From: a bacterium
GTDB lineage: Bacteria; Elusimicrobiota; Elusimicrobia; UBA1565; UBA9628
Length of the DNA: 25,801 nt
Direction of reading: 5' to 3'
Assembly (NCBI GenBank): GCA_021790955.1
Contig: JAJYFI010000001.1
Location: forward strand, 1 to 25,801
Position 1 is the stretch's first letter; each line of letters opens with the position of its first letter. Of this stretch, positions 2,714 to 20,672 are shown one piece after another. Made by a program: the position numbers and the translations under genes. Below the pieces are notes generated by a model. That model was not told where the DNA came from. It made no database searches and saw only the letters and a program-made list of their open reading frames with translations.

Positions 2714-2733
2714 ATGCGCGTAGTTTGGGGTTC

Positions 2734-4128
2734 ATGCGGAAATCTCCTCTCAAGTCTTCCCGCGGGCAGCTTCTCATACCCGCGCTCTTTATTTTCCCGA
2801 GCCTGTTTTTGTTCGTTTATCTGATCTACGAGACGGCGAAGCTCTCCCGCGAAAAGATCCGCCACCAGTTCGCGATCGACTCGGCGGCCTTCATCGAGAT
2901 GAGCAACTATTCCGATTTTCTCAATCGCTCGGCCTATGTCAACGGCGCCTTCCCGATGCGCATCTTTAAGGAAGCGTTCGGCCCGGCGACGCAGATCCAG
3001 TTGAGATGCTACGACAGCCCCTGCCCCTCGGCGGACAGCCTCATGACGCTGATGTTCATGAACGGGGATTTTCCGATGGACACCCAAGATTCGGATTGGA
3101 TGAGCGCCGGAGGCGAGCAAGCCTACACGGCGAAAGCCAAGTGGGAAATCAGATTCTGCGATTCAAGCAGCAATCCGCCCTGCTTCATCGGCAACAAGGG
3201 AACCACCGACGGGGAGCCTGCCGACGGCGACGGCATGAACGTGGTGCCGCCGCCCACGCGGCAATGCGACAGCACGCTTCTTAAACAGCAGGGCGTCTCC
3301 CCGGGCGGCTCCTGCCATGAAATTTTCAACTACGGCACGGCCCAGGATTACGCCTCACCCATCCAGTACACCTGCGTCGCCCCGTATAGCGGCTCGGATT
3401 CGAGCAATCTCTGCCTCCAGCCGGGCCAGACGATCATCGACATATGGGCCAAGGTCTATACGCTGCTCGGCCAGGTCGAGGGCGCCCAGTTCGGGGTTCT
3501 GGGACGGCTCGCCGCCGACCATCACTTCCTGAAGAAGTCCTATTGGCTCAACACCTCGGGGCAGGGCCCCGACGGAGCCGACGCCCAGACCGCCTCGAAC
3601 AGCTTCAACGCCTCGGGGGCCTCCGGCTTCCAGAGCGCCGTGAGCTTCGACTGCCTCGATACGGTCACGGGCTTCGCGAGGACCGCCCACGGCCGCGGAG
3701 GCTGCCAGCCGGCGAAAGCGCCTTTTCTCGGAACGATGCAGCCCGCCCCCATGTGCATCATCAATCCGCCGATCCCGCTCTCCGGCACGGATTCCTGCCC
3801 CGAAGCCGGCGGGGGCATGGGAAGCGGGCTGTTTCAAGTGGCCTCTCTGGACCCGGGGATGGTGACGCCCGACGGGGGCGGGGGATCGATGCAGCGGGGA
3901 TGGATCGCGGCGACCACGTGGCATATCGTCGATCCCAAGACGGACGGAGCCGTCGACTGGGGCTCGGGGGCGGAAAATTTTTTCGGGGTGCCTTTCCAGG
4001 CTCCGGCCGTCTGCGCCAAGGCGACGCTTGGCGAGAGCCCCGACCCATACGCCAGCGTTTGGCCGGACCCGACCCCGAAATTTCAAACGCGGCTGAGGCC
4101 TTGCGACGTGTTGCCCATCGCGCTATGA
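2734..4128 (+). CDS. Tad-domain (TadG/TadE-like) pseudopilin with large Cys-rich C-terminal region, 464 aa
   Basis: N-terminus KSSRG|QLLIPALFIFPSLFLFVYLIYETAKLSREKIRHQFAIDSAA matches the Flp/Tad pseudopilin pattern (basic leader, G|Q, hydrophobic helix, 'Q-x-A-x-D-x-AA'). 14 Cys. ATG 2734 preferred over TTG 2725. Confidence 0.8.
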   Translation: MRKSPLKSSRGQLLIPALFIFPSLFLFVYLIYETAKLSREKIRHQFAIDSAAFIEMSNYSDFLNRSAYVNGAFPMRIFKEAFGPATQIQLRCYDSPCPSADSLMTLMFMNGDFPMDTQDSDWMSAGGEQAYTAKAKWEIRFCDSSSNPPCFIGNKGTTDGEPADGDGMNVVPPPTRQCDSTLLKQQGVSPGGSCHEIFNYGTAQDYASPIQYTCVAPYSGSDSSNLCLQPGQTIIDIWAKVYTLLGQVEGAQFGVLGRLAADHHFLKKSYWLNTSGQGPDGADAQTASNSFNASGASGFQSAVSFDCLDTVTGFARTAHGRGGCQPAKAPFLGTMQPAPMCIINPPIPLSGTDSCPEAGGGMGSGLFQVASLDPGMVTPDGGGGSMQRGWIAATTWHIVDPKTDGAVDWGSGAENFFGVPFQAPAVCAKATLGESPDPYASVWPDPTPKFQTRLRPCDVLPIAL

Positions 4129-4601
4129 CACGCGCCCGCGGGGCCAGGTCCGGCCAAGCGACGACGGAGGTCGTCCTGCTCATCCCGCTCTTCATTTTTT
4201 TCATGTTCGCTTTTGTTAAAATTTTTGGCCTCCTTATCCTGATTCAGCGCATGGAGATCGCTTCCTATTACGCCGCGCGGCGCTGGCAGCTGGAGTCGCA
4301 CCGCAACGTGGCGATCCAGCAGAGCTTCGACATGCCGACGCTCCTTCCCGACATCCAGTCCAAGGTGCAGAATTACCTGGGTTGGGGCAATCCCGAGTTC
4401 CAGAACCTCTTCGCCCTCGCCGACCCCGGGCCGATGGTGAGCGTCCAGCCGACCGAGGTATGGAACGTCGTGACGCTCACGGTTCCGATCTCGGAGACCC
4501 TCCTTTTTTTCAAGTTCAAGCCCCTGAACACGACGATGACCGTCACGAAGTACGTGCCGAATCGCGACAGGCCCATTCTATTTAAGCTGCCCGGGAGCTA
4601 G
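4125..4601 (+). CDS. TadE-family pseudopilin, 158 aa
   Basis: ATGA overlap with the upstream stop. ARSG|QATTEVVLLIPLFIFFMFAFVKIFG has the G|Q site, Glu at +5 and the LIP motif, then ASYYAARR, typical of TadE. Confidence 0.85.
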   Translation: MTRARGARSGQATTEVVLLIPLFIFFMFAFVKIFGLLILIQRMEIASYYAARRWQLESHRNVAIQQSFDMPTLLPDIQSKVQNYLGWGNPEFQNLFALADPGPMVSVQPTEVWNVVTLTVPISETLLFFKFKPLNTTMTVTKYVPNRDRPILFKLPGS

Positions 4602-4610
4602 AGGATTACG

Positions 4611-6305
4611 ATGAAAAAAATCTGGAGCCGTGCGAGGCTCTTCATGCAGCGCTGGTGGCTCGCGGTCGCGATCGTCGTCGGCCTCGGGCTTTCGATCGGG
4701 CTTCCGCTCTGGTACCTGGCGGGCATGGAGCCCGCGCTCAGGCGCTACATCATCGGCATCAACATGGCGGGGTTTCCGATGACCATCATCGGGACCCTGA
4801 TCTTCGTCGCCTTCCTTTATCTCATTCAGTACGGCGGCGGGTTCGCCCGCTTCCGCAAGGCGCGCATCGACGCCCAGAACGTCCAAGTCCGATTCCCGGA
4901 CGTCATCGGCCTGACGGAGGCCAAGCGCGAGGCGCTGGAGGTGGTCGAGCTCATCAAGGACCGCGCCGCGCTCAAGAAAGTCGGCGGGAAGATCATCCAC
5001 GGTCTCCTCATGATCGGCCCGCCCGGCTGCGGCAAGACCATGCTTGCCAAGGCGATCGCGACCGAGGCGGGGGTTCCCTTCCTCTCCGCGGCGGGCTCCG
5101 AGTTCGTCGAGATCTTCGTGGGGGTCGGCGCCTCGCGCGTGAGGAAGCTCTTCAAGCAGGCTCGGCAGTACGCCCAGGCCTACGGCGCCGCGATCATCTT
5201 CATCGACGAGCTCGAAGTCGTGGGCAAGTCCCGCGTCTTCTTCGACGCCTTCGGGGGCTCCTCGGAATCGAACAGCACCTTGAACCAGCTCTTGGTCGAG
5301 ATGGACGGCCTCACCGACATCGACGCCCCGGTGGTCGTGATCGGCGCGATGAACGCCCAACGCGAGGTTCTGGACCCCGCGCTCGTGCGTCCCGGGCGTT
5401 TCGACAGGACCATCACCATCGGAAGGCCCAATCTTTCCGAGCGCCAGGAGATATTCGAATATTACGCCAAAAAGATCCGCCTGGAGCCCGGGATGGATCT
5501 GGGGCGCCTCGCCCGAAAGGCCGTCTACAAGACGCCGGCCGAGATCGAGAATATCCTCAAGGAGGCGGCCTTGATCGCGACCCGCGACCGTCGCGAGATC
5601 GTCAGTTACAAGGACCTCTCTTCCGCGATCGAACGGATCGAGCTGGGGCTGGCGCATCGGCTCAATCTGACTCCCAAGGAAAAGCGGATGACCGCCTACC
5701 ATGAGGCGGGGCATCTCATCGTTCTGTACCTGACCCATCCGACGAACGACGTCTTCAAGGCCTCGATCATCGAACGCGGCGGGACGTTGGGGGTCGTCCA
5801 TTCCATCCCGCGGGAAGAACTCTATTCTTCGGACGCCAAGACGCTGCGCGCCCATATCAACGTCGCTCTTGGAGGCTACGCCGCGGAGAAGCTCAAATTT
5901 GGCGTGACGACGGATGGGGTTTCGGCCGATTTCGCCAACGCCGTTGAGATCGCGCACAAAATGGTGTGGCGATACGGCATGGGCCCCGAGGATTTGGTGG
6001 GAGACTTCACCCTGATCCCCAAGGAACAGCTCTCGGAAAGCCTCAAGGAACGCTTAAACGCCGCCACCCAATCGATCCTTCATGAATCCCTCAAGGAGGT
6101 CGAGAGTCTTCTAAGGGAGCATTCCTCAATCCTTGAGCGATTTGCGGAGGAGCTCGTCCGTCGCGAAGAACTTGATTATGATGAAATCGCCGCGATTTTT
6201 ACGGAATATGGCAAGCCCCCCAAGCCTCTTCCCGTCCCGGCCCCGGCCTTGCCCTCTCCTCAGTTGGACGGGAACGGCAACGGCAGCCCAGTAAAAACTG
6301 GGTAA
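4611..6305 (+). CDS. ftsH: FtsH-family ATP-dependent zinc metalloprotease paralog (2 TM, AAA+, peptidase M41), 564 aa
   Basis: SD GAGGA. Two N-terminal TM helices; VRFPDVIG; Walker A GPPGCGKT; pore-1 EFVEIFVGVG; Walker B IIFIDE; TLNQLLVEMDG; SRH LDPALVRPGRFDR; HEAGH zinc motif; GVSADF (third ligand Asp). Confidence 0.93.
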   Translation: MKKIWSRARLFMQRWWLAVAIVVGLGLSIGLPLWYLAGMEPALRRYIIGINMAGFPMTIIGTLIFVAFLYLIQYGGGFARFRKARIDAQNVQVRFPDVIGLTEAKREALEVVELIKDRAALKKVGGKIIHGLLMIGPPGCGKTMLAKAIATEAGVPFLSAAGSEFVEIFVGVGASRVRKLFKQARQYAQAYGAAIIFIDELEVVGKSRVFFDAFGGSSESNSTLNQLLVEMDGLTDIDAPVVVIGAMNAQREVLDPALVRPGRFDRTITIGRPNLSERQEIFEYYAKKIRLEPGMDLGRLARKAVYKTPAEIENILKEAALIATRDRREIVSYKDLSSAIERIELGLAHRLNLTPKEKRMTAYHEAGHLIVLYLTHPTNDVFKASIIERGGTLGVVHSIPREELYSSDAKTLRAHINVALGGYAAEKLKFGVTTDGVSADFANAVEIAHKMVWRYGMGPEDLVGDFTLIPKEQLSESLKERLNAATQSILHESLKEVESLLREHSSILERFAEELVRREELDYDEIAAIFTEYGKPPKPLPVPAPALPSPQLDGNGNGSPVKTG

Positions 6306-6366: not shown

Positions 6367-7410
6367 ATGGCGCTCACCGTCACGAGAAAAGGTTCGGACC
6401 CTTTCAAGAAATATTGGTGGTTGGTTCTGCTCATTTTTTTGCTGATGGGCGCCTGGAGCTTGTTTCCGACATTGGGGGGCGGCGTGGCGGGGCTCGACCG
6501 CAACCGCTTTCTTCTGGACGCCGGCGCCTTGAAGCCCTTGGACCAGAGCTTGGATGCCCTCAACTCTTCCCCGATCGGAGCCTCCGCGCCGGGAGGCGCC
6601 TTGGGGGGCGCGGTGAAAAGCGGCGCTGGAGGAGGCTCGACGGACCCCGGCGCCATGCTCTATCGGTCTCCCGCCGCGGGGGCCGCTTCGGCGGCGCCCG
6701 CGGCCGCTCCTCTGGCTGACGCCCTGGGAGAGATCAGCCGCCGGCCGGGCGGCGCCATGGCTGCCGCGCCGGCCGCGGCGGCCGCCTCGCCGTATTCGAT
6801 TCCATCCGCCAAGTTCGCGCCGATCGCGATGGGAGGCGGCGGGGGCGGCTCGGGCGCCGGATACGGCGCGGGAGGCTCGGCCGGCCTCGGAGCCTTCGGG
6901 ACGGTCAACGCGCGCCCCGGCATCTCGGCCGCGCAGGGGATGAGCCAGGACATGGCGGCGCTCTCTCCCAAAGGCGGCGCGTTTTCCCAGCTCAAGGCCG
7001 CCGCGGGCTCCGGAGCCGCCCTGGCCGGCATGACGGCCGGGTCGGCCGCGAAGGGCATGAGCAACTCCAATTTCGACGGCAGCGGCGGCGCGGGCGTCGC
7101 GCTTCCGGAGACGTCCGGAGGGGGTTTTGGGGCCACCCAGCAGGGGCTTTTGAGCTTGGCTGCGCCCGCGCCGGGGACGGCGCAAATGACGGGAGGGGCG
7201 ATGCCGCCCGCGCCCATGGCCTCGGGCCCCAGCAAGCAGAAGCAGATGTTGATGATGCTCATGATGGCGGGCGCTATGGGGCTCATGATGGCCGCGACCG
7301 GCGGCTCGGCCTCGATGATCATGCCGATGATGGCCATGCAGATGATGCCGATGATGATGGGCATGATGACGGGGCCTTCCGGGGGCTATGGCGGCGGCTA
7401 CGGCGGCTAG
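6367..7410 (+). CDS. Gly/Ala-rich membrane-anchored hypothetical protein, array member 1, with Met-rich C-terminus, 347 aa
   Basis: ATG 6367 after GAGG. TM segment KKYWWLVLLIFLLMGAWSLFP; family motif AFSQLKAAAG...SNSNFDG; 20 Met in 41 residues near the C-terminus. Confidence 0.85.
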   Translation: MALTVTRKGSDPFKKYWWLVLLIFLLMGAWSLFPTLGGGVAGLDRNRFLLDAGALKPLDQSLDALNSSPIGASAPGGALGGAVKSGAGGGSTDPGAMLYRSPAAGAASAAPAAAPLADALGEISRRPGGAMAAAPAAAAASPYSIPSAKFAPIAMGGGGGGSGAGYGAGGSAGLGAFGTVNARPGISAAQGMSQDMAALSPKGGAFSQLKAAAGSGAALAGMTAGSAAKGMSNSNFDGSGGAGVALPETSGGGFGATQQGLLSLAAPAPGTAQMTGGAMPPAPMASGPSKQKQMLMMLMMAGAMGLMMAATGGSASMIMPMMAMQMMPMMMGMMTGPSGGYGGGYGG

Positions 7411-7444
7411 TCCTTGAAAGTAGATTTGTTGAAGGAGGGAGTTC

Positions 7445-8962
7445 ATGGCTGAGGGACCGACGGGATCGAGGGAGAGCGAGGAAGAATCCGGGGGAGGGCT
7501 CAACGCGGGCGGTGGGCCTGCGGGGTCCAAGGGATTTTGGACGAGCCTTCTGTCGTCCTTGGGGCTTGGCGGCGGGACCGGCGCGGCGGCCGCCGGGACC
7601 GTCGCGGAGGGAGGGGCCTTGGGCGGCGGCGGACTCGGCGCCGGGATCGGCAGCGGGCTCCTTGCGACCAAGGCGGGCTTGATCGGGGTGATCGCCGCCG
7701 GAACGGCGATCGCGGGCGGCGTCGGCGTCGCCACCTACAAGATGTTCGGGCCGCAGTCTTTGGGGACGGTCAGCGGCTATTCGTCCCTTTTCCAGCCCAA
7801 GCCGAAGAATCAGGCCGCCGCTCCCGGCGCCGCGGGACCAAGCGGCAATGGAGGCGGCGCGTCGCAGAGATCCCTGGCGGAGTTTAGGGAAGCCAACGCC
7901 GCGCAGAAGACGGCCGCGACCCCCGCCGCGATGCCGGCCGGATATGCGGCGCCGGGAGCCCAGGCCGGCGCCGCCTCGGCCGGATCCTTGTCCAATTTGA
8001 CCGCCGCGAACGCGAGCTTCATCCCCTCCCTTCCCGGCGGCGCCAAGCCCATTGGAAACGCCGGAGCGCCTCAGAACTCGATGGCTCCCGGGGGATCGGG
8101 GGCCGCCGCCGCGCCCTCCGGACAGGGAACCGGCGCCGCCGCGCAGTCGGTGGTGGGAAGCCAGGGCGGCGCGATGAGCCCTGCCGCGGCCGGCGTTAAC
8201 GGGGGGCTGAGGGCCTTTGGCGCCACGGGAGGCAACGGCGGCGGCGGCGGCGCCTACGGGCAGGCGCAGCACGAGTTCGCCGAGAACGCCGGCGCCACGT
8301 CCTCCCAGGGCGCGGGGCAGACCTACGACAACGGCGGGCGCAGCGGAGGAAACTCTCTCGGCGGCACGGGAACGGGCGCCGCGGGCGTCAGCGGCACGGG
8401 TCCCTCCGGAATCTCGAATCCCACCTATTCCAACTCGAATCCCTGGCGGGGCGGGGAGTCCTCGGTGCCGCCGACGAGCGGCGCCACGGGTGCGAGCCCC
8501 TGGCAGACCGCGATCGAATTGGCGACCGGCTTGACGGTCGGCGCCCTGGCGTTGCTGTTCCTGGCTCGAAGGATGGCGCTTAAAGCGATCGCGGCAGGGC
8601 CGGAGGCCGAGGCCGCCGCGCAAATGACAGTTCGTGTGCTATTAGGAATTGCTATCGCCATGGGGCTCGCCGTTGTCTATTTAGGCGCTAGAATGGGCAT
8701 GGGCCCATACAGCCAGACGCTTCAAGGAGTGCTCTTTATTATGTCCGGAGCGGCGATCGCCACGAGCGCGGCTGCTTCCATGCTATATCCTAAAGGCATA
8801 GGGGCCATCGCCATCGCGGGAATGATCTCCGCGGCGGTCTTCACGGGGCTGGCGCTCTTCACTCCTGAATCCAGCACCTGCCCGCCGAGCGGAAGCTGTC
8901 CCGATCTCTTCGGCTCCTCGGGAAACCAAAATCCGAGCGCGATCAGCAATCTAGGGCTCTGA
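7445..8962 (+). CDS. Gly/Ala-rich membrane protein, array member 2, 505 aa
   Basis: SD AAGGAGG. TM LLATKAGLIGVIAAGTAIAGGVGVATY; motif AYGQAQ...GQTYDNG; SPWQ followed by 3-4 hydrophobic helices; C-terminal CPPSGSC. Confidence 0.88.
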   Translation: MAEGPTGSRESEEESGGGLNAGGGPAGSKGFWTSLLSSLGLGGGTGAAAAGTVAEGGALGGGGLGAGIGSGLLATKAGLIGVIAAGTAIAGGVGVATYKMFGPQSLGTVSGYSSLFQPKPKNQAAAPGAAGPSGNGGGASQRSLAEFREANAAQKTAATPAAMPAGYAAPGAQAGAASAGSLSNLTAANASFIPSLPGGAKPIGNAGAPQNSMAPGGSGAAAAPSGQGTGAAAQSVVGSQGGAMSPAAAGVNGGLRAFGATGGNGGGGGAYGQAQHEFAENAGATSSQGAGQTYDNGGRSGGNSLGGTGTGAAGVSGTGPSGISNPTYSNSNPWRGGESSVPPTSGATGASPWQTAIELATGLTVGALALLFLARRMALKAIAAGPEAEAAAQMTVRVLLGIAIAMGLAVVYLGARMGMGPYSQTLQGVLFIMSGAAIATSAAASMLYPKGIGAIAIAGMISAAVFTGLALFTPESSTCPPSGSCPDLFGSSGNQNPSAISNLGL

Positions 8963-8975
8963 TCAGGAGAGAACG

Positions 8976-10505
8976 ATGGAATTAGACGAGGTTCCTTCTT
9001 ATAAGCTGAAGGACCAGTGGGTCCGCAAGCCTTCCGGTCGGGACAGGCGCAAAAAGAAAAAGGCCGGCGGAGGATGGTTCTCGCGCTTTGCCGGAGGCGG
9101 GCCAAGCGCGGCGGCCTCGGGAACCGAAGCGGCGTCATCCGCCTCCGAGTCGGTCCAGGCGATCGAGAGGCTCCTGGGTCTTGGGACGAAATACGGAGGA
9201 GGAGCCGCGGCCTTCGCATGGAAAAGCGCGCTGGCCATTCCCGCTTTGTCGATCGCCGTCGGCGCCGGGGCCTACGGGCTCGGCCGGGTCTTTGCTCCGC
9301 CGAAGCCGTCCGCCGCCGCCTCCGGCGACGCGAGGACGGCCCTCTTTGAAAAGTTGGGGCCTTACAAGGGCAAACTCTCGAAACTTCCCACCACCACGCA
9401 GGCGATCGACTCCCTGGGCCTTGGAAGCCATAGCCCGGCGCCCGTGGCGTCCTCGGAGGCCGCCGCGCCGAATCCCCCGCGCGCCAAAGTCCTGCCGCAA
9501 TCCCCGGCGGCCGCCGCTTCCGCGAGGGCCGGCCGCGGCTCCTCCTCGGGTGGAGTGGCCGCGGGCGCCGTCATCCCCCATGTGGGCCAATTCCCGGGAG
9601 GGCGATCCGCCGTTTCCAACACCGATGCCCGCGCCTTGAGCCCTCAGGGGCGTCCGGCGGCGGTCTCGCCCAAAGATCAGCACACCCACGCGCTGGCCGC
9701 GCTTTTCGGCGGAGCCTCTCCTAGCATGGAGAAGAGCGGCGCCGTCGGGGGAGCCATCCAAGGAGAAGCCTTGGGGCAGTTGGGCGGGGCCAACAGGTTT
9801 TCCAACGCGGGGCTTCAAGCGGGCGTCCAGGAAGGCGCGGCCGGCAACGCGGGCATGGCTTTCGATCACGGCGCGGCCCTCCCGACGACGGTCGGAGGGG
9901 GCGTGGCCCTGACCGGGGCCGGTGACGGCAGCTCCAACCCCGGGGCGCAACCGGCGGCGTCCAACTCCTGGGGAAGCGCCGGCTCGGCTCCGGGATCGCC
10001 GATGGGAGGCGGCGGCGGCGCGCGATCGCTTCCGACGGCCGGCAGTCCCGCCGGAGCGACCGATAACGGCACCCAGACCATGATTGATATCGCCACCGGG
10101 CTTCTATTGGGCGCCATGGTTCTCTTGTTGGTGGCCCGGTTCGCGAAAGGTCCTTGGGCGATTGGGCTCAAGATCGCGGCAGCCGTGGCGGCGGCCGCCG
10201 CGGCCGCGATCGGCGGGGCTTTGATGAGTTCGGGCCATTTTTGGACCGGGCTTATGTTCTTGGTGCCCGGAGGGATCATGGCGGCGATGGCGGCCATGTC
10301 CGCCTGGGGAGCGATGACGGCGGGCGAAGGCGCCGCGTCGGGGCTGCAGGCCCAGATCAGCAGTATGTATACGACGACGTCCTCGGCCGGCAGCACGACA
10401 ACATTGTCCTCGACGGCGTCTTCCATCACCACAACGTTGGGGGGCGGTTATACCTCGACTTATTCCGGCGCTATGTGCACCAGTCTGACGAGTCCCGGGG
10501 GATGA
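8976..10505 (+). CDS. Gly/Ala-rich membrane protein, array member 3, with Thr/Ser-rich tail, 509 aa
   Basis: SD AGGAGA. RRKKKKAGGGWF; TM ALAIPALSIAVGAGAYGLG; motif ALGQLGGAN...AGMAFDHG; C-terminal hydrophobic helices, then a T/S-rich tail. Confidence 0.88.
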   Translation: MELDEVPSYKLKDQWVRKPSGRDRRKKKKAGGGWFSRFAGGGPSAAASGTEAASSASESVQAIERLLGLGTKYGGGAAAFAWKSALAIPALSIAVGAGAYGLGRVFAPPKPSAAASGDARTALFEKLGPYKGKLSKLPTTTQAIDSLGLGSHSPAPVASSEAAAPNPPRAKVLPQSPAAAASARAGRGSSSGGVAAGAVIPHVGQFPGGRSAVSNTDARALSPQGRPAAVSPKDQHTHALAALFGGASPSMEKSGAVGGAIQGEALGQLGGANRFSNAGLQAGVQEGAAGNAGMAFDHGAALPTTVGGGVALTGAGDGSSNPGAQPAASNSWGSAGSAPGSPMGGGGGARSLPTAGSPAGATDNGTQTMIDIATGLLLGAMVLLLVARFAKGPWAIGLKIAAAVAAAAAAAIGGALMSSGHFWTGLMFLVPGGIMAAMAAMSAWGAMTAGEGAASGLQAQISSMYTTTSSAGSTTTLSSTASSITTTLGGGYTSTYSGAMCTSLTSPGG

Positions 10506-10511
10506 CCGGCG

Positions 10512-12053
10512 ATGGGGCTTAATTTCATCAAAAAGAAGGGGTCGCCGGGGCGCACCCCCCCGACGACTCCAACACGCGCTCAAGACAGCGCCGATTCTTT
10601 CGAGCTTCCCGACTTCAAAAAGAAAAAGGAGAACGGGCGGCGAAAGGGCGGCGGATGGTGGTGGTTCGGCCGTTCGGCCCAAGGGGTGCTTCAGAGCGCC
10701 GAGACAAGCACGGCCGCCGAGGCGGCGGCCGCCTCGCACGGCGCGCTTTCTTTAGGAGCGGAATCCGCGGCGAGCGTCGCCCAGAACGCCGTGCGGGCCG
10801 CAGGGGCCGTTGGAAAATCGCTGGCCTCCTCCGCCTGGGGCTTCGTCCCCTCCGCGGCGATCATGGGAAAGATCGCCCTCGGAGGAGTCCTTTTGGCCTT
10901 CGTGGGGGGAACCGTCGCGGCGCTCATGTCGAGTCCGCGGCAGATCGGGGCCTTCCTGCGCATGGCCGCGCCGGGTTCGATGCGGCCGCTGCCGACGGCG
11001 GCGCCGAATTCCCTGGCCTATGCGTCCCGGGGCCTGCCCGTCGGAGCCTCGAACGCTTCCGGCCGCGCGGACGCCGGCGCCGTCGCGCGCTCCGCCGGGG
11101 CGCAACCGCCCAATCTCGCCGCCGGCATCGCGGGATTGTCCGTCCGCCAAGGCGGCGCGCCCGTCCCGAAGGGCCTCCCTTTGGAAAAAAACGGCGCGCC
11201 GGGGATGAGCGCGCCGCCGGCGGGGATGCTGCCGCCGCCGCCGAACGCGAACCCCCTCCAGTCCTTCGCGGGACAAGGCAAGCCGGGCTCGACCCACGAT
11301 CCGATTCTGGCGGCGCAGGCCCAGGCCGTCGCTCCGGGGTCGTTGCAAGCGACATCGGCGTTGGGCGGCCAGGGCGGCGGAATGCTCGCCCTGGGCCAGC
11401 TCCGCAGCGCCTCCTCGATCAACAGCCACGTGATGCAGGGCGAAAGCGAGACGGGCGCCATGCTGGGCCAGCAGGTTTTCGACAATCCCGCCGGAGCGGC
11501 CGGCCAGACGGGCGGCGCGCAGATCACGGGCGCGGGCGACGGCTACGGGGCGAACTCCGTGATCAATGGCTCGGGCGGCTCCTCGGCGTCCGGCTCGGGC
11601 GGCGCTCCGATCGCGGCGGGCGGCGGCCTGGGCCAGTGCGCGGGTTCGCTCGATGCTTGCAGGGGCGGAGAAGGAAGCACCAACAACGCCACGCAGGCCG
11701 CTCCGGCACAGAGCGCTCTTAACACCGCCTTTACGATCGCGGGAATCGCGGGATTGGGCATCGCCGCCGTCGCCGCGCTGGTGACCGCCGGAGGGCCGGT
11801 GGGGATGGCGCTGGCCATCGCCGGAGCGGGGCTGGTGTCGATGGCCGGCATCTATATCATGACTTCGGGCTATCAAATGCTGCAAGCCGGAGCGAACTCC
11901 GGCGTGGTGGCCGGGGTTGAAACGATGGGAGCATCCTTGATCGCGGGCGCCGTGTTGGCGATGGCGGGAGGCGTCGCCGGCCTCGTGGGAGCCGGCATCG
12001 GGATCGCCAACGCTGTCGCCGCGATCGTCCACGCGTTCACGGCCGGCGGGTAG
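10512..12053 (+). CDS. Gly/Ala-rich membrane protein, array member 4, 513 aa
   Basis: KKKKENGRRKGGGWWWF; TM IALGGVLLAFVGGTVAALM; NSLAYASRG; motif ALGQLRSASSIN...GQQVFDNP; GQCAGSLDAC; C-terminal Gly-zipper helices. Confidence 0.88.
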   Translation: MGLNFIKKKGSPGRTPPTTPTRAQDSADSFELPDFKKKKENGRRKGGGWWWFGRSAQGVLQSAETSTAAEAAAASHGALSLGAESAASVAQNAVRAAGAVGKSLASSAWGFVPSAAIMGKIALGGVLLAFVGGTVAALMSSPRQIGAFLRMAAPGSMRPLPTAAPNSLAYASRGLPVGASNASGRADAGAVARSAGAQPPNLAAGIAGLSVRQGGAPVPKGLPLEKNGAPGMSAPPAGMLPPPPNANPLQSFAGQGKPGSTHDPILAAQAQAVAPGSLQATSALGGQGGGMLALGQLRSASSINSHVMQGESETGAMLGQQVFDNPAGAAGQTGGAQITGAGDGYGANSVINGSGGSSASGSGGAPIAAGGGLGQCAGSLDACRGGEGSTNNATQAAPAQSALNTAFTIAGIAGLGIAAVAALVTAGGPVGMALAIAGAGLVSMAGIYIMTSGYQMLQAGANSGVVAGVETMGASLIAGAVLAMAGGVAGLVGAGIGIANAVAAIVHAFTAGG

Positions 12054-12076
12054 TCCGTTTCGTCGGGACGTTTTTC

Positions 12077-13618
12077 GTGAGCCTCAAAAGTCGCCGGCGC
12101 GCCCGGCGGCCCGTGCCGCCGTCTTTCATTCCCCAGCCTGGAGCGGGGGAGGCGGGGACGGTTTGTCCCCCTCAAACGGAAAAGCGCCGTAAGCCCGCCG
12201 GGGGTTGGTGGTGGCGCCGGGTCGCGAGCCGTCTTTGGAGAGGAGCTCCCGCTGATGCCGACGCCGTCTCGGCCGGGGCTGGCGAGGAGGCCGTCGAGCT
12301 TTCGGAAGCGGGAACGCACTTGGCCGTGCGGGCGGGCGCCGGCCGTTCGGCTCCCGTGTTTTTCTTGAAAACCGCGATTGCGGCCCTTGTTACGGCATTC
12401 CTCGCCCTCGCGGTGGAGATCTCCCGTCGCCCGGATATCGTCGGCGCGGCGTTGGGCTTGTCGCCGCCCGCCTCCCTGGAGGCGCTCCCGCGTCTCGCGC
12501 CGAGCTCCTTGCCGTACGCCTCCCGCGGCGTGGCGGGACTCGACGGCAAACTCTCCGGGACTGCGTCGGCTCTTGCGCCCGGAGCCGGCATGGGGGGCTC
12601 GGTGGCGGAGGTGGCGGAAAGCGGAGGGGCGTCCTCCGCCGGCCCGGTTCAATCGATCGTCGAGGCTCTTAAGAATTGGAGAGAAGGCATCGCGTCGGCG
12701 CTGCGGAGTTCCGAGTCCGCCTCGGGGTTTGAGCCGGCCGGCCCCTCGCTGACGCCTCCTCCCGGCGGCTTTTTCGCTCCGGGCGCGACGCCCACGAACG
12801 CGCTCAAGGGATTCGTCGCGGGCGATCTCCGCCCGGGCCGCCACAAGGATGGGAGCTTGGCGCAGGCGGTGGCTCCGGGGAACGTCAGCGGCCTTCATAT
12901 GGGGAGCTTGGTCAACGAGCGCTCCCTGGCCTTGGGGCAGCTGCGGAGCGCCGCGTCGTTGAACGCCTCCATGCGGCGCGCGGGAGAGGACGAGACCGCC
13001 TCCGAGGAAGGCCAGGCGCAGTTCGACAATCCGGGGCAAGCCGCGTCCGTTTCTGGCGAGGGGCTCGCGGCGACGGGCGGCGGCGACGGCACGGGCGCGG
13101 GCTCCGTCGTCAACGGCCCTCAGGGAGGAGGGGCTCCGCAGACGACGGGGGCGCCGTCCGTCGCCGCGGGCCTCGGCGCCTGCGGGGCCTTTGATGCGTC
13201 GCGATGCGGCGCTCCAGCGCCCTCCGCGAACGCTCCCGCCGCCGGCGCTCCCTGGCAGAGACTTCTCGACAAAGCGGCCTGGGCGGTCGGCGTGGGGGAC
13301 GGCCTCTTGATGGCGGCCTCCGTCCTCGCGCTGATCGGAGAGATGCTCGGGCCCTACGGCTGGCCCTTCATCATCGCGTCCTATGCTCTCGCGGCGGGAG
13401 CCGCGGCCCTTGGCGGCGTCGCTATCGATCTCGGAGTCCGAGCCCGCGACATGGGCGCGATGCCGCAGGGAGCCTGGATCGCCGGCATTTTGGGCGGCGC
13501 CGTGATCGCTGGGGCGGCGGGGGTTTTCCTGGGCGGGCCCGGGGCGGTCGCCGGCTTGATCCTCGGGGCCGCGGGGCTTGTCGGGACGGTCGTGACGAGC
13601 CTGCTGGGCAAGTTTTAA
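12077..13618 (+). CDS. Gly/Ala-rich membrane protein, array member 5 (closest paralog of member 4), 513 aa
   Basis: GTG start (exact start uncertain). KRRKPAGGWWW; TM AIAALVTAFLALAVEI; SSLPYASRG; motif ALGQLRSAASLN...GQAQFDNP; GACGAFDASRC; APWQ followed by C-terminal hydrophobic helices. Confidence 0.86.
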   Translation: MSLKSRRRARRPVPPSFIPQPGAGEAGTVCPPQTEKRRKPAGGWWWRRVASRLWRGAPADADAVSAGAGEEAVELSEAGTHLAVRAGAGRSAPVFFLKTAIAALVTAFLALAVEISRRPDIVGAALGLSPPASLEALPRLAPSSLPYASRGVAGLDGKLSGTASALAPGAGMGGSVAEVAESGGASSAGPVQSIVEALKNWREGIASALRSSESASGFEPAGPSLTPPPGGFFAPGATPTNALKGFVAGDLRPGRHKDGSLAQAVAPGNVSGLHMGSLVNERSLALGQLRSAASLNASMRRAGEDETASEEGQAQFDNPGQAASVSGEGLAATGGGDGTGAGSVVNGPQGGGAPQTTGAPSVAAGLGACGAFDASRCGAPAPSANAPAAGAPWQRLLDKAAWAVGVGDGLLMAASVLALIGEMLGPYGWPFIIASYALAAGAAALGGVAIDLGVRARDMGAMPQGAWIAGILGGAVIAGAAGVFLGGPGAVAGLILGAAGLVGTVVTSLLGKF

Positions 13619-14451
13619 CGCGAAGGCCGGCCCCAGGCTTCGCTGAGAAGGAGCCATTGGGACGGATCGCTCCCGATGAATCCTTCCATCGCGCGCAGGA
13701 GCCTTCCCGCGATCGCCGGGATCGTCGCGCGGCCGGGATCGATGGCCGCGCCGCATTCGAGGGAGAGACGCCCCGCGCGCTTGACGGCGCAAACAGGCAG
13801 GACGGGCGCTCCGGAGAGCCTGGAGAGCCGGGCCACGTCGCGCGGGGCGGGAAATGCCGCGCCAAAAAACGGCAGCCGGAGCTCTTGCGCGCCGAAGTCC
13901 ATGTCGGCCGTCACGAGGACGCAGCCGTTCTGGCTCAAGAAGCGCCAGGAGGCCCTCGCCGATCCCTTTCGTCCGAGCACTCGCAATCCGGGGGTTTGGC
14001 CCCAACGATACGGGGAAGGGGCGTTGAGGATGCAGGCAAGCGGCATCCTCGCGCGATCGAGGGCCTTGGCGCACACCCAAAGATTTCCATAATGAGGAGC
14101 CGCAAGGATAACGCCGCGTCCGGCCCTTCGCAGCCGGCGAAGCGCGGACAGAAGCGGCAATTGGACCTCGCCGAGGATGGCCGGATCGGAGTCGATCGCG
14201 AACAGGGCGAGAGAGGCTTGGATTTCAGCATGGAGCTCGGCGAGCCTTCGCGCGTGGCGTCGGATCTCGGCCCGCGGGGTCGGGAGCCCGTTGAAGGATC
14301 GTATACGCCTAAGATTGTCGCCGAGCCGCCGACGCCTCGGCGGCATCCCCAGGATGAGCCCGTAGCCGAGGCTCAAGATGGCTTGATAGGGCCGCAAACC
14401 CAGCAGCGAGAGTAGCAGCCCCTTGGCCCCAAAGTGAAGCGGTCGGCTCAC
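13615..14451 (-). CDS. Lysophospholipid/lipid A acyltransferase-like protein (LpxL/HtrB/PatA family), 278 aa
   Basis: GTG 14451 overlaps the SRPBCC stop (GTGA). Motifs: GRGVILAAPHYGNLW, VLVTADMD, LPFFGAAFPAP...ARLSRLSGAPVLPV, DPSQWLL. The stop overlaps the member-5 stop (TTAA 13615-13618). Confidence 0.75.
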   Translation of the reverse strand: MSRPLHFGAKGLLLSLLGLRPYQAILSLGYGLILGMPPRRRRLGDNLRRIRSFNGLPTPRAEIRRHARRLAELHAEIQASLALFAIDSDPAILGEVQLPLLSALRRLRRAGRGVILAAPHYGNLWVCAKALDRARMPLACILNAPSPYRWGQTPGLRVLGRKGSARASWRFLSQNGCVLVTADMDFGAQELRLPFFGAAFPAPRDVARLSRLSGAPVLPVCAVKRAGRLSLECGAAIDPGRATIPAIAGRLLRAMEGFIGSDPSQWLLLSEAWGRPSR

Positions 14452-14915
14452 TCCTCGAAGAGGCGGGGTAGGCGGTCGGCGATCTGCCCGAGCATCCATC
14501 CCGGCTGGCCGACCAAGGCGGCCGTGGCGTTGAGGGCCGGCCCCCACACCGGTATGCGGAATTCGAACTCCGCGCGCAGCGAGACCCGGCATTGTCCCGG
14601 GGCGGGGACGGTGGCGGCGAGGGACAGAAGGGCGTGCCGAGGGGCGGGCCAGGGTTCGGCCGAAAGCAGGACGAGCGTGAAGCGCTCGGGCGGGACCCAT
14701 TCCGTGATCGTCCAGACCTGGCGGATTCGCCGGCCGCTCTCTAAGGCGATGTTTTTGCCGGGGCCAAGCCCTTCGCTCGCGATGAGGCGGGGCTTGAACG
14801 CCTGGATGAACCGATCGATCCTCAGCAAATATTCCCAATGGCCGAGGTTTTGGAGCGTTTCCCAAACCTTTTCCCGCGTTTGGCCCAAAACCAGGGCTTT
14901 TTCGGCGCTGGGCAT
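14448..14915 (-). CDS. SRPBCC (START/Bet v1/polyketide cyclase-like) family protein, 155 aa
   Basis: Size and pattern: EKVWETLQNLGHW (N-terminal 'VW..l.d...w'), GLGPG, WTITEWVPPERFTL, CRVSLRAEF, C-terminal helix. Confidence 0.75.
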   Translation of the reverse strand: MPSAEKALVLGQTREKVWETLQNLGHWEYLLRIDRFIQAFKPRLIASEGLGPGKNIALESGRRIRQVWTITEWVPPERFTLVLLSAEPWPAPRHALLSLAATVPAPGQCRVSLRAEFEFRIPVWGPALNATAALVGQPGWMLGQIADRLPRLFEE

Positions 14916-14921
14916 ATTGAG

Positions 14922-14949
14922 AGCATAGTAAAAATGGGAAGCGTATCAA
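14922..14949 (-). promoter_or_regulatory. Possible leftward promoter giving a leaderless SRPBCC-acyltransferase transcript
   Basis: Minus strand TTGATA (14949-14944), 16 nt, TATGCT (14927-14922); ATG begins 7 nt after the -10 box. Confidence 0.4.
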
Positions 14950-14973
14950 TTCGGTTAAAGACGGACGACTCTA

Positions 14974-15002
14974 TTGACAAGCTCGGAGGCCGAGATTAAA
15001 CT
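14974..15002 (+). promoter_or_regulatory. sigma70-type promoter heading the second block of the array
   Basis: TTGACA (14974-14979), 17 nt, TAAACT (14997-15002); boxes identical to those at 6322-6350. Confidence 0.72.
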
Positions 15003-15025
15003 ATCGTCGTCTCTGAAAATCAGCC

Positions 15026-15952
15026 ATGTTAAGCGGGAATCAGGAAAAAGAGCCGGCTTCCAAAGGAGTATTTCAGCTCGCGATTTTCGGCGCTTTTTCG
15101 GCGTTGGCGTCCGGTTGGTTGCTGGCCCGATTGGTTCCTCCTCGCGATTTTGGGGGAGCCACGATTCAATCGAGCGCCGCTGTCCCTAGCGAAATCGCAA
15201 TGAAAATGAATGGGAAGAAGAGCGTCCCCGCCGCGCGGCGCCCGCAGCCTCCGGCGATGATGGGCGATTCGAGAGACCTTTTCGTCATGAAGGGGCCGTA
15301 TCGAGGCCTTGAAAATCCCTCCTTGTACCCGGAGGGCCGCTCGGGGGTTTCTCTAAGAGAGGGCCAGTGGGATCCGCCCGCGATGGGGGCTCGCGCCGGA
15401 GATCCCGGCGAGGGTATGGCTTTCTGGGAGTCGACGCCTCTTTTTGAATCCCCGCGGCTTCCAAAGCCGACGGCGCGCCTGCGCCGGGCCTTCGCCTACG
15501 CCCAGACGCTGTCGAACGAGGGCGCGGGCCTCCAGGCGAAACGGGCCGATGTCCTTTCGGCGGAGGGCCGCTCCTGCGGGGCGTCCGAATGCCGGCCCGA
15601 GGACGCGAGCCTGCTGGCCGCCGGGGCCTTCGACGGCGCCGGCGCTCCCGCCGCCCGCGCTTCCGCCGGCGCGCCGGTCGCCCTTCATGGCGACGAGCGC
15701 GCCGCGGGCCCGGACGGCGCGCCGCCGGCGGCCGCCGCCGAGACGACTCGGTCTCAATGCGAGGAGACTCGCGAAAAATACGAGCCGCTGATCGCGCAAG
15801 CTTTGTCCCGCCTCCAGGAAGCCCGCGCCGGCGCCGATCGCCGCGCTGCTTGCCTGGAACTTGCGGATTTGAGATGCTTGAGTCTCAGGGGCTGCCCTTT
15901 GACGGCCGGCATCCCCTGCACGGCTCCCGATTGCGGAAACGGAGCCAGCTGA
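15026..15952 (+). CDS. Membrane-anchored hypothetical protein, array member 6, with Cys-rich C-terminus, 308 aa
   Basis: TM VFQLAIFGAFSALASGWLLARLV; family-like motif RAFAYAQTLSN...LAAGAFDG; 8 Cys, 6 of them in the last ~65 aa. Confidence 0.8.
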   Translation: MLSGNQEKEPASKGVFQLAIFGAFSALASGWLLARLVPPRDFGGATIQSSAAVPSEIAMKMNGKKSVPAARRPQPPAMMGDSRDLFVMKGPYRGLENPSLYPEGRSGVSLREGQWDPPAMGARAGDPGEGMAFWESTPLFESPRLPKPTARLRRAFAYAQTLSNEGAGLQAKRADVLSAEGRSCGASECRPEDASLLAAGAFDGAGAPAARASAGAPVALHGDERAAGPDGAPPAAAAETTRSQCEETREKYEPLIAQALSRLQEARAGADRRAACLELADLRCLSLRGCPLTAGIPCTAPDCGNGAS

Positions 15953-15963
15953 CGGAGGATTCC

Positions 15964-18897
15964 ATGGCAGACAACCCCAAATCGCAGGGAACGGAGCGCG
16001 ACAAGAGGGAGGCGCCCTGGGCGTCTCTCCTGGGCGGCGGGAAGGGCCTCTCGAAATTCCAGCTGCGAAGCGGGACGACGAAGCTTTCCTTCATCGACAG
16101 GTTGCGCCAGTTCCGTCGCAAGGATCTCGCCTTCATCCTGGCGGGCCTCGGCATCCTGTTCATGGCGCCGCTGGCCGACTTTCTGTTCACCGGATCCGGC
16201 AACGAGGAGGCGGGCTCTTTCGGGACCGGCTGGGGGATGCGCAACGCCTTGGGCGGATTGGGCGGCGCCGGAGGGCCTTTCGACTACGGGGTCAACGGCA
16301 TGGCTCCCGGCGGCGCCGTGGGCGCCAACGGCGAGGTCATCACGCCGCTCGACGCGCGCGATCCGGCTTCTTTGATCCTGGGTCTTCCCGGGATGGGAGG
16401 CGAGACGCCGAAGGCGCCGGAGGCAAGCCCAGCCGCGCCGCAAAAGACTTGGAAGGATTCCTTCGCCGGCGCGGCCGCCGGGGCGGCAAAGGCCGCGGTC
16501 CGGGCGGCGGGGTTCAGCATCCCGCATCTCCCCTTGGGCGCTTCAGGGCTCAGGGCCCTGGGCTTTGGAGGCGGCGCGCATGCCGCGGGCGGCGCGGCAG
16601 CGGGCGGCGCGGCCGGAGTCGGCGCCTGGGGGGTTCCCACGCACGCGGCGGGCAACGACTCCCTGAGCAAGGTGTTGTCGTCTCCCGGATATAAGGGCGC
16701 GGCCGCCCGCAATTTCACGAGCGGAGGCCAAGGCTTCGATAAAATGAAGGCCGCCGCCGGCAAGGCCGCCAATAATTTCAACAACCTGGGCCGCGCGGCG
16801 AACAACCTCCAGAAGGCCGCGGCGACCCCGATCGTCGGGGCGGGCGGCGCCAACACGGGCGGCGCCGGCGCCGGAGGGAAGGGCGGAGGGATGGGCAACG
16901 AGGGCTCGATCGGCAAGACCTCCAAATCCATCGGCCAATCGCTCGCCTTCATGGCGGCCAAGCAGAACCTCCAGCACGCGATCGACCTTTACTGGAAGCA
17001 GCAGGAGGCGTGGGCGATGCTGGTCCCGAACATGGTGACCCAAATGGCCAACAGCATGGCCCAGATCCCCACCACGGTGATGTCCTCCTATCTCATGTAC
17101 AGCATGATGCGGCATCAAATGGGGATGGGCGCCGGCGCCGGAGGAGGGCAGTCCGTGCAGTGCACGATGAGCAGCGGCAGCCCTGTTTTTGGCGGGTGTC
17201 AGGAAGTTCCGAATTGCGGCGCGGTCCTGAGCACCATGATGATGGCAAACGCGGCGACCGGCATGGGCGCTTCCAACGGCGCCGGCGGCAATACGGGATT
17301 AGGCGCGAATGCGGGCTTAGCGGCGGCCATGACCACTCCTTACTGTCTGCAGGGATCGCAACTCATGGTGACCGCAAGCCAATCGCCGGTCATGGGCGCC
17401 ACGTGCCAACCCTGCGGCTCCGGTTCGCCGAACGGTCCGAATAGCGGCGACGGCCTCAATCCCGCCAGCGGCAAACAGGAAAATGGGGTCGGGGATGTCC
17501 CGGGGATGGCCTCCAGCGTCCAACTCAACGCTCCCGCGCTTTGCAGTTCCTTAAAAGCTCTAGCCGAGCCCAAAATAGGCGGTCCGTCCGCCGTCACGGG
17601 AATGGGCCGTCGGCAGCAGGCGGATTTTTACGGCAAGCTTAATACCTCGGCGCAGTCCATCAACCAAATGGGATTGGCGTTAAGCCAGAGCGGGAAGCCG
17701 TCCGCTTGCGGAGGCGGTAGTATGGCGGGACTTCAGAATACGAAGCCACTTAACCAACTGTTGGTGCAGAGCAGGGATCAGCTGGCTCAGATCGCGAATA
17801 CCATCAAAATGATGTCGCCGGCGGCCGGATCATCGGCTAATGATATTTACGATCAAGATTTCGACATCGCCACGCAGGCTTGCGCGGTTCTCAAGCAGAC
17901 GGGCCGCGGCGTCGGTCAAATCATCAGTCCCTTGAACAAAGCCCAAGAGACGAACTCGTCGGCATTGCAACCGGCCGCGAACCAAATCCAGGATCTCTTG
18001 GGACAGTTGTCTAATCAAACCCAGAATTTGAAGCAAAGGGCGAGCGCATCGCTCGATCTTTACAACGGGCTGGCGGGGCCCCTTGGCGAAGTGTCAAGCC
18101 TCCTTTCCAAAATCGGACAGGATATTACGACGATTAAGGGCCAACTGAACAGCACGGCGCAGGGCTTGTCCCCAAACAAGCTGAATGCGGGATTGGGCCA
18201 GACGGCGCAGAAAAGCGCCAATTCGTACATTACGATATTGAATGGCGACATCCCGAATCTTAGGAAAAACTTCGACCAGATTAACCAGCAATACAAGTCC
18301 GAGAATCAAGCCCTGAATCTGATCCAGACGACATTGCTGGGTCAAACGGGGGGGATCTCTCCCACGAATGGCTTGTTGACGCAGCTTATGGCGTTTACCT
18401 ATTACGCCGTCAGCGGGCAAACTCCGAGCCTTGCCATCCCCCCCGGGGTTTCCGTGCCCCAGCCGTCTTTCCTGCCCATCGTCGGCAATGGATCCGGGGG
18501 TTCGGCGCAGGCTGGCGGGTCGGCCGCAACGGGCGCCGGGGGTCAATGCGAAGGGTCGATCGCTTCTTGCGCTTCGAACGTCAACCAGACATTCCAGGAA
18601 CAAATATCGAACGCGTCGAATGGGCAAGTCGGTTCGAAAGTCGTTAATTCGGCCTATCAGGGCTTCAAGGGTTCCTTGGGGTGGAATCCGTTCTCCCAAT
18701 GGGTCGCCAGCATTTGTCCCGGCCGCCTGGCGGCGGCTCCCGCCGCGTCAGGTGGCGTTACCTTGAATTCCCTTCTAAACAACGGAGCCATCGGCCAGGC
18801 GATCGCGACAATCAACAGCGATCTCAACGCCGCGGGGATGCCGTCGGCGGAAGCGACGACAGCTTCCGCATCTGGTGGTGGGAGTGGCGACGAATAA
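15964..18897 (+). CDS. Large membrane-anchored protein, array member 7: Gly/Ala-rich N-terminal half and Gln/Asn/Leu-rich helical C-terminal half, 977 aa
   Basis: ATG 15964 with SD GGAGG; the track's 15589 start overlaps member 6. TM RKDLAFILAGLGILFMAPLADFLF; weaker motif GFDKMKAAAGKAANNFN; Met-rich segment; Cys pairs; heptad-like region; GQCEGSIASC. Confidence 0.9.
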   Translation: MADNPKSQGTERDKREAPWASLLGGGKGLSKFQLRSGTTKLSFIDRLRQFRRKDLAFILAGLGILFMAPLADFLFTGSGNEEAGSFGTGWGMRNALGGLGGAGGPFDYGVNGMAPGGAVGANGEVITPLDARDPASLILGLPGMGGETPKAPEASPAAPQKTWKDSFAGAAAGAAKAAVRAAGFSIPHLPLGASGLRALGFGGGAHAAGGAAAGGAAGVGAWGVPTHAAGNDSLSKVLSSPGYKGAAARNFTSGGQGFDKMKAAAGKAANNFNNLGRAANNLQKAAATPIVGAGGANTGGAGAGGKGGGMGNEGSIGKTSKSIGQSLAFMAAKQNLQHAIDLYWKQQEAWAMLVPNMVTQMANSMAQIPTTVMSSYLMYSMMRHQMGMGAGAGGGQSVQCTMSSGSPVFGGCQEVPNCGAVLSTMMMANAATGMGASNGAGGNTGLGANAGLAAAMTTPYCLQGSQLMVTASQSPVMGATCQPCGSGSPNGPNSGDGLNPASGKQENGVGDVPGMASSVQLNAPALCSSLKALAEPKIGGPSAVTGMGRRQQADFYGKLNTSAQSINQMGLALSQSGKPSACGGGSMAGLQNTKPLNQLLVQSRDQLAQIANTIKMMSPAAGSSANDIYDQDFDIATQACAVLKQTGRGVGQIISPLNKAQETNSSALQPAANQIQDLLGQLSNQTQNLKQRASASLDLYNGLAGPLGEVSSLLSKIGQDITTIKGQLNSTAQGLSPNKLNAGLGQTAQKSANSYITILNGDIPNLRKNFDQINQQYKSENQALNLIQTTLLGQTGGISPTNGLLTQLMAFTYYAVSGQTPSLAIPPGVSVPQPSFLPIVGNGSGGSAQAGGSAATGAGGQCEGSIASCASNVNQTFQEQISNASNGQVGSKVVNSAYQGFKGSLGWNPFSQWVASICPGRLAAAPAASGGVTLNSLLNNGAIGQAIATINSDLNAAGMPSAEATTASASGGGSGDE

Positions 18898-20661: not shown

Positions 20662-20672
20662 CTAGCGCGCTT

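Follow-up and report, generated by a model that had tools for sequence, protein, structure and literature searches.

What does a short conserved motif do in seven neighbouring membrane proteins, where it is embedded in low-complexity linkers? The question is raised by seven + strand genes, m1 to m7, that occupy positions 6367–18897 of a 25,801-nucleotide stretch of Elusimicrobia DNA (contig JAJYFI010000001.1, positions 1 to 25,801; this whole stretch is the window in what follows). A sequence-only reading had described the seven as a paralog array with a common 'A-x-G-Q-L ... F-D' motif. We concluded from comparative sequence evidence that a motif of ∼35–45 residues is real and unnamed in six of the seven genes, which could be shown only via relatives from other genera, and we found the array to be the form that a gene cluster of free-living Elusimicrobia, conserved among them, takes in this genus.

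The window lies on a contig (C20) of a metagenome-assembled genome (MAG) of 1.67 Mb that is 62% complete and has 65% GC, and metagenomes from mine drainage and tailings are the only ones that carry its DNA. Each of the seven genes is real, because the G+C content at third codon positions (GC3, 0.73–0.84) backs the reading frames of all seven + strand genes and because their order is also kept in two sister species.

Conservation of the motif within and between lineages

The motif consensus reads [A/G]-hydrophobic-x-[Q/K]-L, followed after ∼15–25 residues by an acidic residue and after another ∼8–10 residues by [F/Y]-D-[G/N]. The motif strings that had been quoted for the individual proteins were found where they were said to be. 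Among 33 orthologs of m1, which are ∼30% identical, F236, D237 and G238 never vary, and at least 90% keep L209. No motif residue is invariant in the 31 orthologs of m2, where D295 is kept in at least 90%; in the eight closest relatives of m2, A270, Q273, G291, T293 and D295 are invariant. For m3 (19 orthologs) the invariant residues are Q268 and F296, with L269 and A272 at 90% or more, and for the m4/5 lineage (18 proteins) they are G310, E313 and F323, with L297 at 90% or more. Between the first transmembrane (TM) helix, TM1, and the C-terminal TM helices, the m4/5 proteins have six invariant or near-invariant positions; four belong to the motif, and the others are G174 and G119.

The motif varies in form between the lineages. 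That of m2 is 7 residues shorter than that of m3, the missing residues being mid-motif, and the Cys-rich lineage to which m6 belongs (x6) has a C-x3-4-C pair inserted in the motif loop between the two helices. Only the C..C..E..FDG half of m6 is homologous to the x6 family, and the 'AFAYAQ' string that had been taken as the first half of its motif is probably not part of it. The m7 protein has the first helix only; 'F-N-R/N' stands in place of FDG ∼15 residues on. When all windows of the linker were ranked by conservation, the motif came 1st of 226 in m2, 3rd of 233 in m4/5 and 22nd of 239 in m3. The claim that a short helix is conserved while its flanks drift thus describes m2 and m4/5 well and m3 moderately; it does not describe the m1 motif as a whole, as the entire m1 linker is conserved and only FDG and the residues after it stand out.

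For comparisons between lineages we used the family profiles F1, F2, F3, F45, F6/Fx6 and F7, which stand for the m1, m2, m3, m4/5, m6/x6 and m7 lineages, respectively. The best local profile–profile alignments of F1 were all motif-on-motif and in register. With F3, residues 201–248 of m1 fell on 261–308 of m3 without a gap (E 4.7e-5, 68%); with F45, residues 203–243 of m1 fell on 291–330 of m4 (E 1.1e-4, 56%); and with F2, residues 223–244 of m1 fell on 281–302 of m2, which is the FDG half (E 1.5e-5, 80%). As a control, each target was shuffled 60 times by permuting columns inside 40-column windows. The real scores of F1 against F2, F3 and F45 were 42–53, while the shuffled scores had a mean of 17 and a maximum of 30 (z 8.5–13). 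A profile of x6 and m6 together also matched F3 (68%, E 4.9e-5; PgEfAaTNtGavYDGn against ..E..A..A.a.FDn), this match lying outside the shuffle controls.

Profiles from other genera were decisive here. Within the genus, a hidden Markov model (HMM) of the m3/4/5 motif scored four of the seven proteins (m1, m2, m6 and m7) at the level of local shuffles that preserve composition, the control by which the sequence-only reading had proposed that its motif should stand or fall. The picture changed with the other-genus profiles described above. When the 18,076 six-frame ORFs (open reading frames) of the genome were scored with a pooled motif HMM of 46 positions, the first six places went to m5, m4, m3, m1, m2 and m6, a ranking that is circular because the window's own sequences were included. 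With the own genus excluded, only m5 and m3 were recovered, m5 as the top match with an E-value of 2.7e-4 among the 18,076 ORFs. A motif-only HMM is thus too weak to find the other lineages. As the motif is too information-poor for database mining alone, the full m2-family profile was used on the large protein library.

Kinship of the seven proteins and spread of the cluster

In an all-versus-all BLASTP comparison of m1–m7 the only pair was m4–m5 (1e-23). When three-species profiles were compared by hhalign, m2, m3, m4 and m5 were linked at 62–100%, and m1, m6 and m7 had no significant link. Deep family profiles gave 98–100% for the same group (F2–F3 99.7%, F3–F45 99.5%, F2–F45 97.8%), with homology across 230–320 aligned residues. 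By these alignments m2–m5 are true paralogs, and the array described as seven paralogs contains seven real and syntenic genes with paralogy confined to these four.

The alignment of m2 with m3 spans 323 columns and holds both the motif and the x-S-L box (SL box) in register. This box had been noted as usually following the N-proximal TM helix, and it is conserved within lineages: S143 and L144 of m2 are invariant in 31 orthologs, with A150 and N151 at 90% or more, and at least 80% of F1-family members carry 'QSLD', the box there ranking 16th of 247 linker windows. We define m2–m5 as a superfamily that appears, from these comparisons, to be new. Its marks are an N-tail, TM1, a low-complexity linker, the SL box, A-x-x-Q-L...[FY]-D, 'P-W-Q' and a C-terminal bundle of 3–4 TM helices, and m2–m5 carry them. 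We did not place m1 in this superfamily, because only its motif aligns (22–48 columns, 56–80% probability); hhalign put neither an SL box nor a C-terminal bundle in register, and its C-terminus is a Met-rich segment instead of the m2–m5 bundle.

The two remaining proteins have more limited links. The F6–Fx6 comparison (53%, E 1.4e-4) makes m6 a shortened member of the x6 lineage. The similarity of m7 to m1 extends over ∼100 residues (m1 113–219 against m7 160–271; hhalign 83%, E 8.8e-6), and the F1–F7 match has a z of 9.6 against column shuffles. With deep family profiles the motif is thus common to six of the seven, m7 contributing its first helix only.

A pattern scan with an m2-type alignment covered 185,579 species genomes and yielded 34 loci, all of them from Elusimicrobia or from unclassified 'bacterium' MAGs. 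Among 101 genomes of the order, 33 had ORFs of equal length and architecture that an m2–m5 profile picked out, and a word-based search found m4 homologs in two sister species only, their loci being fully syntenic. The m2 superfamily was present in 105 of 401 sampled genomes of the phylum. It is near-universal in four families (f1, 45/47; f2, 2/2; f3, 10/10; f5, 43/47) and was not found among the small-genome families searched (e.g. f4 genera g34 and g35; f16). In the large library, the m2-family profile had 596 matches at E ≤ 1e-3 among 1.84e9 representative proteins, mostly of 450–550 aa.

About 30 loci, every one from Elusimicrobia, share the order TadG-like gene, TadE-like gene, FtsH paralog, an occasional insertion, and then m1-, m2-, m3- and m4/5-type genes. 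The 3' part often has an SRPBCC gene and an acyltransferase gene on the opposite strand, then the Cys-rich x6 type and the m7 type; the 10 orthologs of m7 lie at the 3' end of the cluster. The acyltransferase/SRPBCC pair, or SRPBCC alone, was seen in the same slot between m4/5 and x6 in other genera (loci L031, L039, L041 and L051). In a tree, the m4 and m5 clades are sisters (support 100/99) inside one m4/5 lineage. In other genera this lineage is represented by one gene, and the m4/m5 duplication is specific to this genus, which is why there are seven genes here and six lineages elsewhere. In the complete Elusimicrobiota genome CP096137.1 the m2-type gene looks split (locus L056, 7806–12128): its C-terminal part occurs twice (8198–9406 and 10950–12128), with the first 30 residues identical and other genes in between.

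Searches for known relatives supported the suggestion that the motif could belong to an unnamed domain. In Pfam and NCBIfam, m1–m6 have no family, and m7 had only DUF745 (15.8 bits, cut-off 33.3) and TIGR04527 (21 bits, cut-off 125), both below threshold. In family-wide scans against Pfam-A, none of 31 m2-type proteins matched, and one of 33 m1-type proteins did, by a chance match. A sequence search of the PDB returned no match. Foldseek against the AlphaFold DB found a full-length m2 relative, A0A1F9TDS0 (E 2.4e-5, 22% identity over 4–505); the other matches to the m2 model had E ≥ 0.27. In the ESM Atlas, m2 hit clusters of 62 and 69 members whose commonest phylum is Elusimicrobiota, and nothing usable was found for m7. 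Neither A0A1F9TDS0 nor the two clusters carry a name, a Pfam family or a functional annotation. Plectin and designed bundles were rejected as fold matches for m2, as the best Z of 12.6 is within the noise range stated for helical models. A search of the literature on Elusimicrobia and TadE found nothing relevant. The cluster and its families thus appear to have no described counterpart. We call them new because of the lack of a detectable relative and because of the gene architecture; the label does not denote a demonstrated mechanism.

Protein anatomy and neighbouring genes

The features of the window are collected in Table 1. A 1102-aa ORF from 15589, which is Arg-rich and reaches into the end of m6 in a different frame, was rejected as a spurious 5' extension of m7, because the frame favoured by GC3 changes near 15900 and the ortholog in the sister species begins MADxNPKSQ.

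Table 1. Positions of the genes and motif elements in the window, with the evidence for each
Feature	Position	Strand	Evidence
u0, TadG-like membrane protein, first gene of the cluster	2725..4128	+	precedes the cluster in >20 Elusimicrobia loci
u1, TadE-like pseudopilin, ∼168 aa, start approximate	4095..4601	+	sub-threshold PF07811; syntenic
FtsH paralog, AAA and peptidase M41	4611..6305	+	Pfam and NCBIfam matches
m1, F1 lineage, 347 aa	6367..7410	+	35 orthologs; AlphaFold2 model; TM scan
m1 x-S-L box, aa 55–64	6529..6558	+	family conservation
m1 motif AFSQL...NFDG, aa 205–238	6979..7080	+	ortholog conservation; helix in model
m2, F2 lineage, 505 aa	7445..8962	+	34 orthologs
m2 x-S-L box, aa 140–152	7862..7900	+	ortholog conservation; predicted helix
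m2 motif AYGQ...TYDN, aa 270–296	8252..8332	+	top linker window; helix
m3, F3 lineage, 509 aa	8976..10505	+	hhalign to F2 and F45
m3 motif ALGQL...AFDH, aa 265–299	9768..9872	+	conservation in 19 orthologs
m4, F45 lineage, 513 aa	10512..12053	+	BLASTP to m5; tree
m4 motif ALGQLR...VFDN, aa 293–326	11388..11489	+	conservation in 18 F45 proteins
m5, F45 lineage, 513 aa, genus-specific duplicate of m4	12077..13618	+	tree
m5 motif, aa 285–319	12929..13033	+	motif alignment; top motif-HMM match with own genus excluded
LpxL-like acyltransferase and SRPBCC protein, between m5 and m6	13615-14915	-	profile matches
m6, 308 aa, shortened member of the Cys-rich x6 lineage	15026..15952	+	hhalign F6–Fx6; alignment
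m6 motif ...SCGASECRPEDAS..AFDG, aa 168–204	15527..15637	+	x6+m6 profile against F3
m7, 977 aa: N-tail, TM, long part, probably periplasmic	15964..18897	+	10 orthologs; GC3
m7 partial motif GFDKMKAAAGKAANNFNN, first helix only, aa 258–275	16735..16788	+	F1–F7 hhalign
Wzy_C (O-antigen-ligase-like) protein with C-terminal TPR repeats	20553-22382		Pfam

Each of the seven proteins had been described as having a single N-proximal TM helix. A TM scan found this helix in all of m1–m7. The six lineages have an architecture in common, with a Lys/Arg-rich N-tail, the one TM helix and then 250–290 mostly disordered residues rich in Gly, Ala, Ser and Pro; m1–m5 add 1–4 C-terminal TM helices behind a linker of 256–290 residues that is ∼60% G+A+S+P. 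From the motif to the C-terminal anchor the distance in m1–m5 is always 55–85 residues. In m1 the linker after TM1 has 256 aa and leads to a hydrophobic C-terminal segment rich in Met; this end (7246–7380) carries MLMMLMMAGAMGLMMAATGG...MMPMMMGMM, and the Met richness is partly kept in orthologs.

In the AlphaFold2 model of m2, made with 31 sequences, residues 354–472 form a four-helix TM bundle (10-residue block means of 87–97 over 351–450 in the predicted local distance difference test, pLDDT), and the linker is disordered except for isolated helices at 140–156 (SL box) and 269–281 (motif). The model of m1 has a helix at the motif, 205–220. In these models the helices of the SL box and motif have a pLDDT of ∼50–65.

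The N-tails are 14–120 residues long, with 13–16 Lys+Arg in m3, m4, m5 and m7. In m4 and m5, conserved Cys pairs (C-x6-7-C) occupy the part of the linker that separates the motif from the bundle (11600–11650 and 13130–13180), and x6-type genes (e.g. locus L026, 12422–14110) carry a multi-Cys domain. From the Lys/Arg-rich N-tails, together with these Cys pairs and the Cys-rich x6, we infer an N-in topology in which the linker and motif would be periplasmic.

We also observed an element in the N-termini on the other, presumably cytoplasmic side. In many genera m2-, m3-, m4/5- and m7-type proteins open with '[I/V/L]-P-x-[F/L]-K' and then a run of Lys/Arg, e.g. IPNFKLAKVGKER and DIPDLKKKEKERK. In the window it occurs within 8976–9100, 10512–10680 and 15964–16130, and in relatives within loci L039 (9324–10922 and 10938–12587) and L026 (14133–16520). 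The N-terminus of the m1 family has a near-invariant 'DPFKKYWW' in which D11, P12 and W17 are invariant. The element, which was seen by eye and for which hhalign gave no significance, might serve as another common signal, lying on the FtsH side of the membrane.

Upstream of m1, the cluster FtsH matches both AAA (PF00004, 120 bits) and M41 (PF01434, 131 bits) above the Pfam cut-offs. It is a divergent paralog, because its score against TIGR01241, 453 bits, is below the equivalog cut-off of 600. In ∼25 loci the FtsH gene adjoins m1 or sits a few kb upstream of it. Cluster FtsH paralogs have M41 scores of 110–132 bits against 225–243 for the best-scoring copies, which are presumably the housekeeping ones. 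Genomes with the cluster have 2–4 M41 genes, and one small-genome relative without it has 1. These observations suggest that the FtsH paralog is dedicated to the cluster.

The u1 proteins match PF07811 across the full 43-position profile with 17–21 bits (cut-off 22.9), both in the window copy and in four of five relatives. The window copy of u0 has no Pfam match, and one u0 relative has a sub-threshold match to PF13400. On the 3' side of the array lie a protein without a family match, the Wzy_C protein with TPR repeats and a histidine kinase. We rejected the Wzy_C/TPR gene as a conserved cluster member: there are 5–9 Wzy_C genes per genome, and proximity to the cluster was seen only in the sister species and perhaps in one of four other genomes examined.

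Possible roles of the motif

Invariant residues that sit on short helices within disorder are read most economically as a shared binding or polymerisation interface, a reading that is plausible and that the sequence-only reading had anticipated. Selection is concentrated on the Leu, the acidic residue and [F/Y]-D-[G/N]. As the best explanation of the whole, which we put forward tentatively, the motif might be a shared periplasmic docking/assembly motif in a hetero-oligomeric envelope assembly. It would then be a short linear peptide that takes on its fold when it docks, and the cluster proteins would use it to engage a common partner, or one another, in the periplasm; such docking would build the hetero-oligomeric assembly, and the FtsH paralog could insert, remodel or turn over members via their long cytoplasmic tails.

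Several points weigh against this explanation. In m1 the motif as a whole ranks 149th of 223 linker windows, no better conserved than the rest of the linker. Once the own genus or the target lineage is left out of its alignment, the 46-position motif HMM no longer finds m1, m2, m4 and m6, and wrong-frame Arg-rich ORFs match it at E 0.007–0.07, so that an E-value of ∼0.01 is noise. The topology is read from charge and Cys patterns only. Co-folding of m1 192–255, m2 255–312, m3 252–320 and m4 280–345 scored 0.00, which is evidence neither way, and the sequence turned up only in DNA runs from mine drainage. A more far-reaching version, an undescribed envelope machine of six inner-membrane proteins knit together by the helix–FDG motif and the SL box, maybe round a TadE/TadG-like core and with FtsH as assembly or turnover motor, is doubtful. 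Likenesses to type VII secretion substrate motifs and to SNARE-like bundles were considered, and no test supported them.

The motif may instead have been inherited without any shared partner. It would then be a self-folding helix–loop–helix–FDG hairpin from one ancestral membrane protein, disulfide-braced in x6 and kept for stability or spacing. The homology of m2–m5 over hundreds of aligned residues, the further ∼100 residues shared by m1 and m7, the constant distance of the motif from the C-terminal anchor and the x6 Cys pair between the two helices all agree with such descent. AlphaFold2, however, gives low confidence and no hairpin packing, and m1 aligns with m2–m5 at the motif alone, which is unusual for plain descent without selection there. 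We consider this alternative rather unlikely.

Still less probable is a role of the motif in recognition by an enzyme, be it TPR docking of the Wzy_C protein, which would glycosylate the Ser/Ala-rich linkers, or protease/sortase-like processing. The neighbouring Wzy_C+TPR gene points this way, as do the linkers, since Ala/Ser/Pro/Gly-rich regions resemble the targets of general O-glycosylation systems. The linkage of Wzy_C genes to the cluster, however, is inconsistent, and no prepilin-peptidase-like cleavage context was seen. The related proposal that the Tad machine or FtsH recognises the motif for sorting is not supported: the catalytic domains of FtsH are cytoplasmic and the motif is probably periplasmic, and the Tad ATPase, platform and secretin had no match among the ten flanking ORFs scanned against Pfam.

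That the likeness arose from Gly/Ala-rich composition and hand alignment, with only m2–m5 related, is very improbable overall: the shuffle-level scores of the within-genus HMM, the non-significant three-species links of m1, m6 and m7 and the failure of leave-one-lineage-out motif HMMs on m1, m2 and m6 speak for chance, but the in-register top matches of three independent lineage pairs (42–53 against at most 30), the match of the x6 and m6 profile to F3 and an FDG invariant across 33 diverged m1 orthologs largely refute it for m1–m6, leaving it a fair possibility for the half-motif of m7.

Few Elusimicrobia have been cultured, and little work has been done on their cell envelope. The present analysis defines a phylum-restricted, strongly syntenic cluster that is near-universal across four of the class's GTDB families. 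The invariant FDG and the conserved Leu and Glu provide a precise handle for experiments, and an extra FtsH paired with defined candidate clients is useful for the study of substrate choice by membrane AAA+ proteases.

Comparison of the proposed docking motif and its neighbours with known systems gives partial likenesses. The cluster recalls the minor pseudopilins TadE, TadF and TadG of Tad/Flp pili in the weak TadE and Tad N-terminal matches of u1 and u0. These matches, however, are all below the Pfam cut-off, and no prepilin peptidase match was found in the flanking ORFs scanned; m1–m7 have no pilin signal, and their N-tails are unlike prepilin leaders.

FtsH is known with dedicated membrane-protein clients, and long flexible cytoplasmic tails are a handle that it uses. 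The cluster resembles such systems in that its AAA+/M41 protease adjoins membrane proteins with long flexible cytoplasmic tails, and differs from them in that its FtsH is a divergent extra paralog for which m1–m7 are candidate clients.

The TonB box and the TolA–TolB system provide examples of short docking motifs on envelope proteins with low-complexity periplasmic spacers. As in these systems, a short conserved peptide is carried here by several inner-membrane-anchored proteins in flexible surroundings and presumably folds on a common partner. Unlike them, the cluster proteins have no sequence or profile similarity to TonB or TolA and no TonB_C, TolA or other Pfam domain, and in m1–m5 both ends of the spacer are fixed in the membrane.

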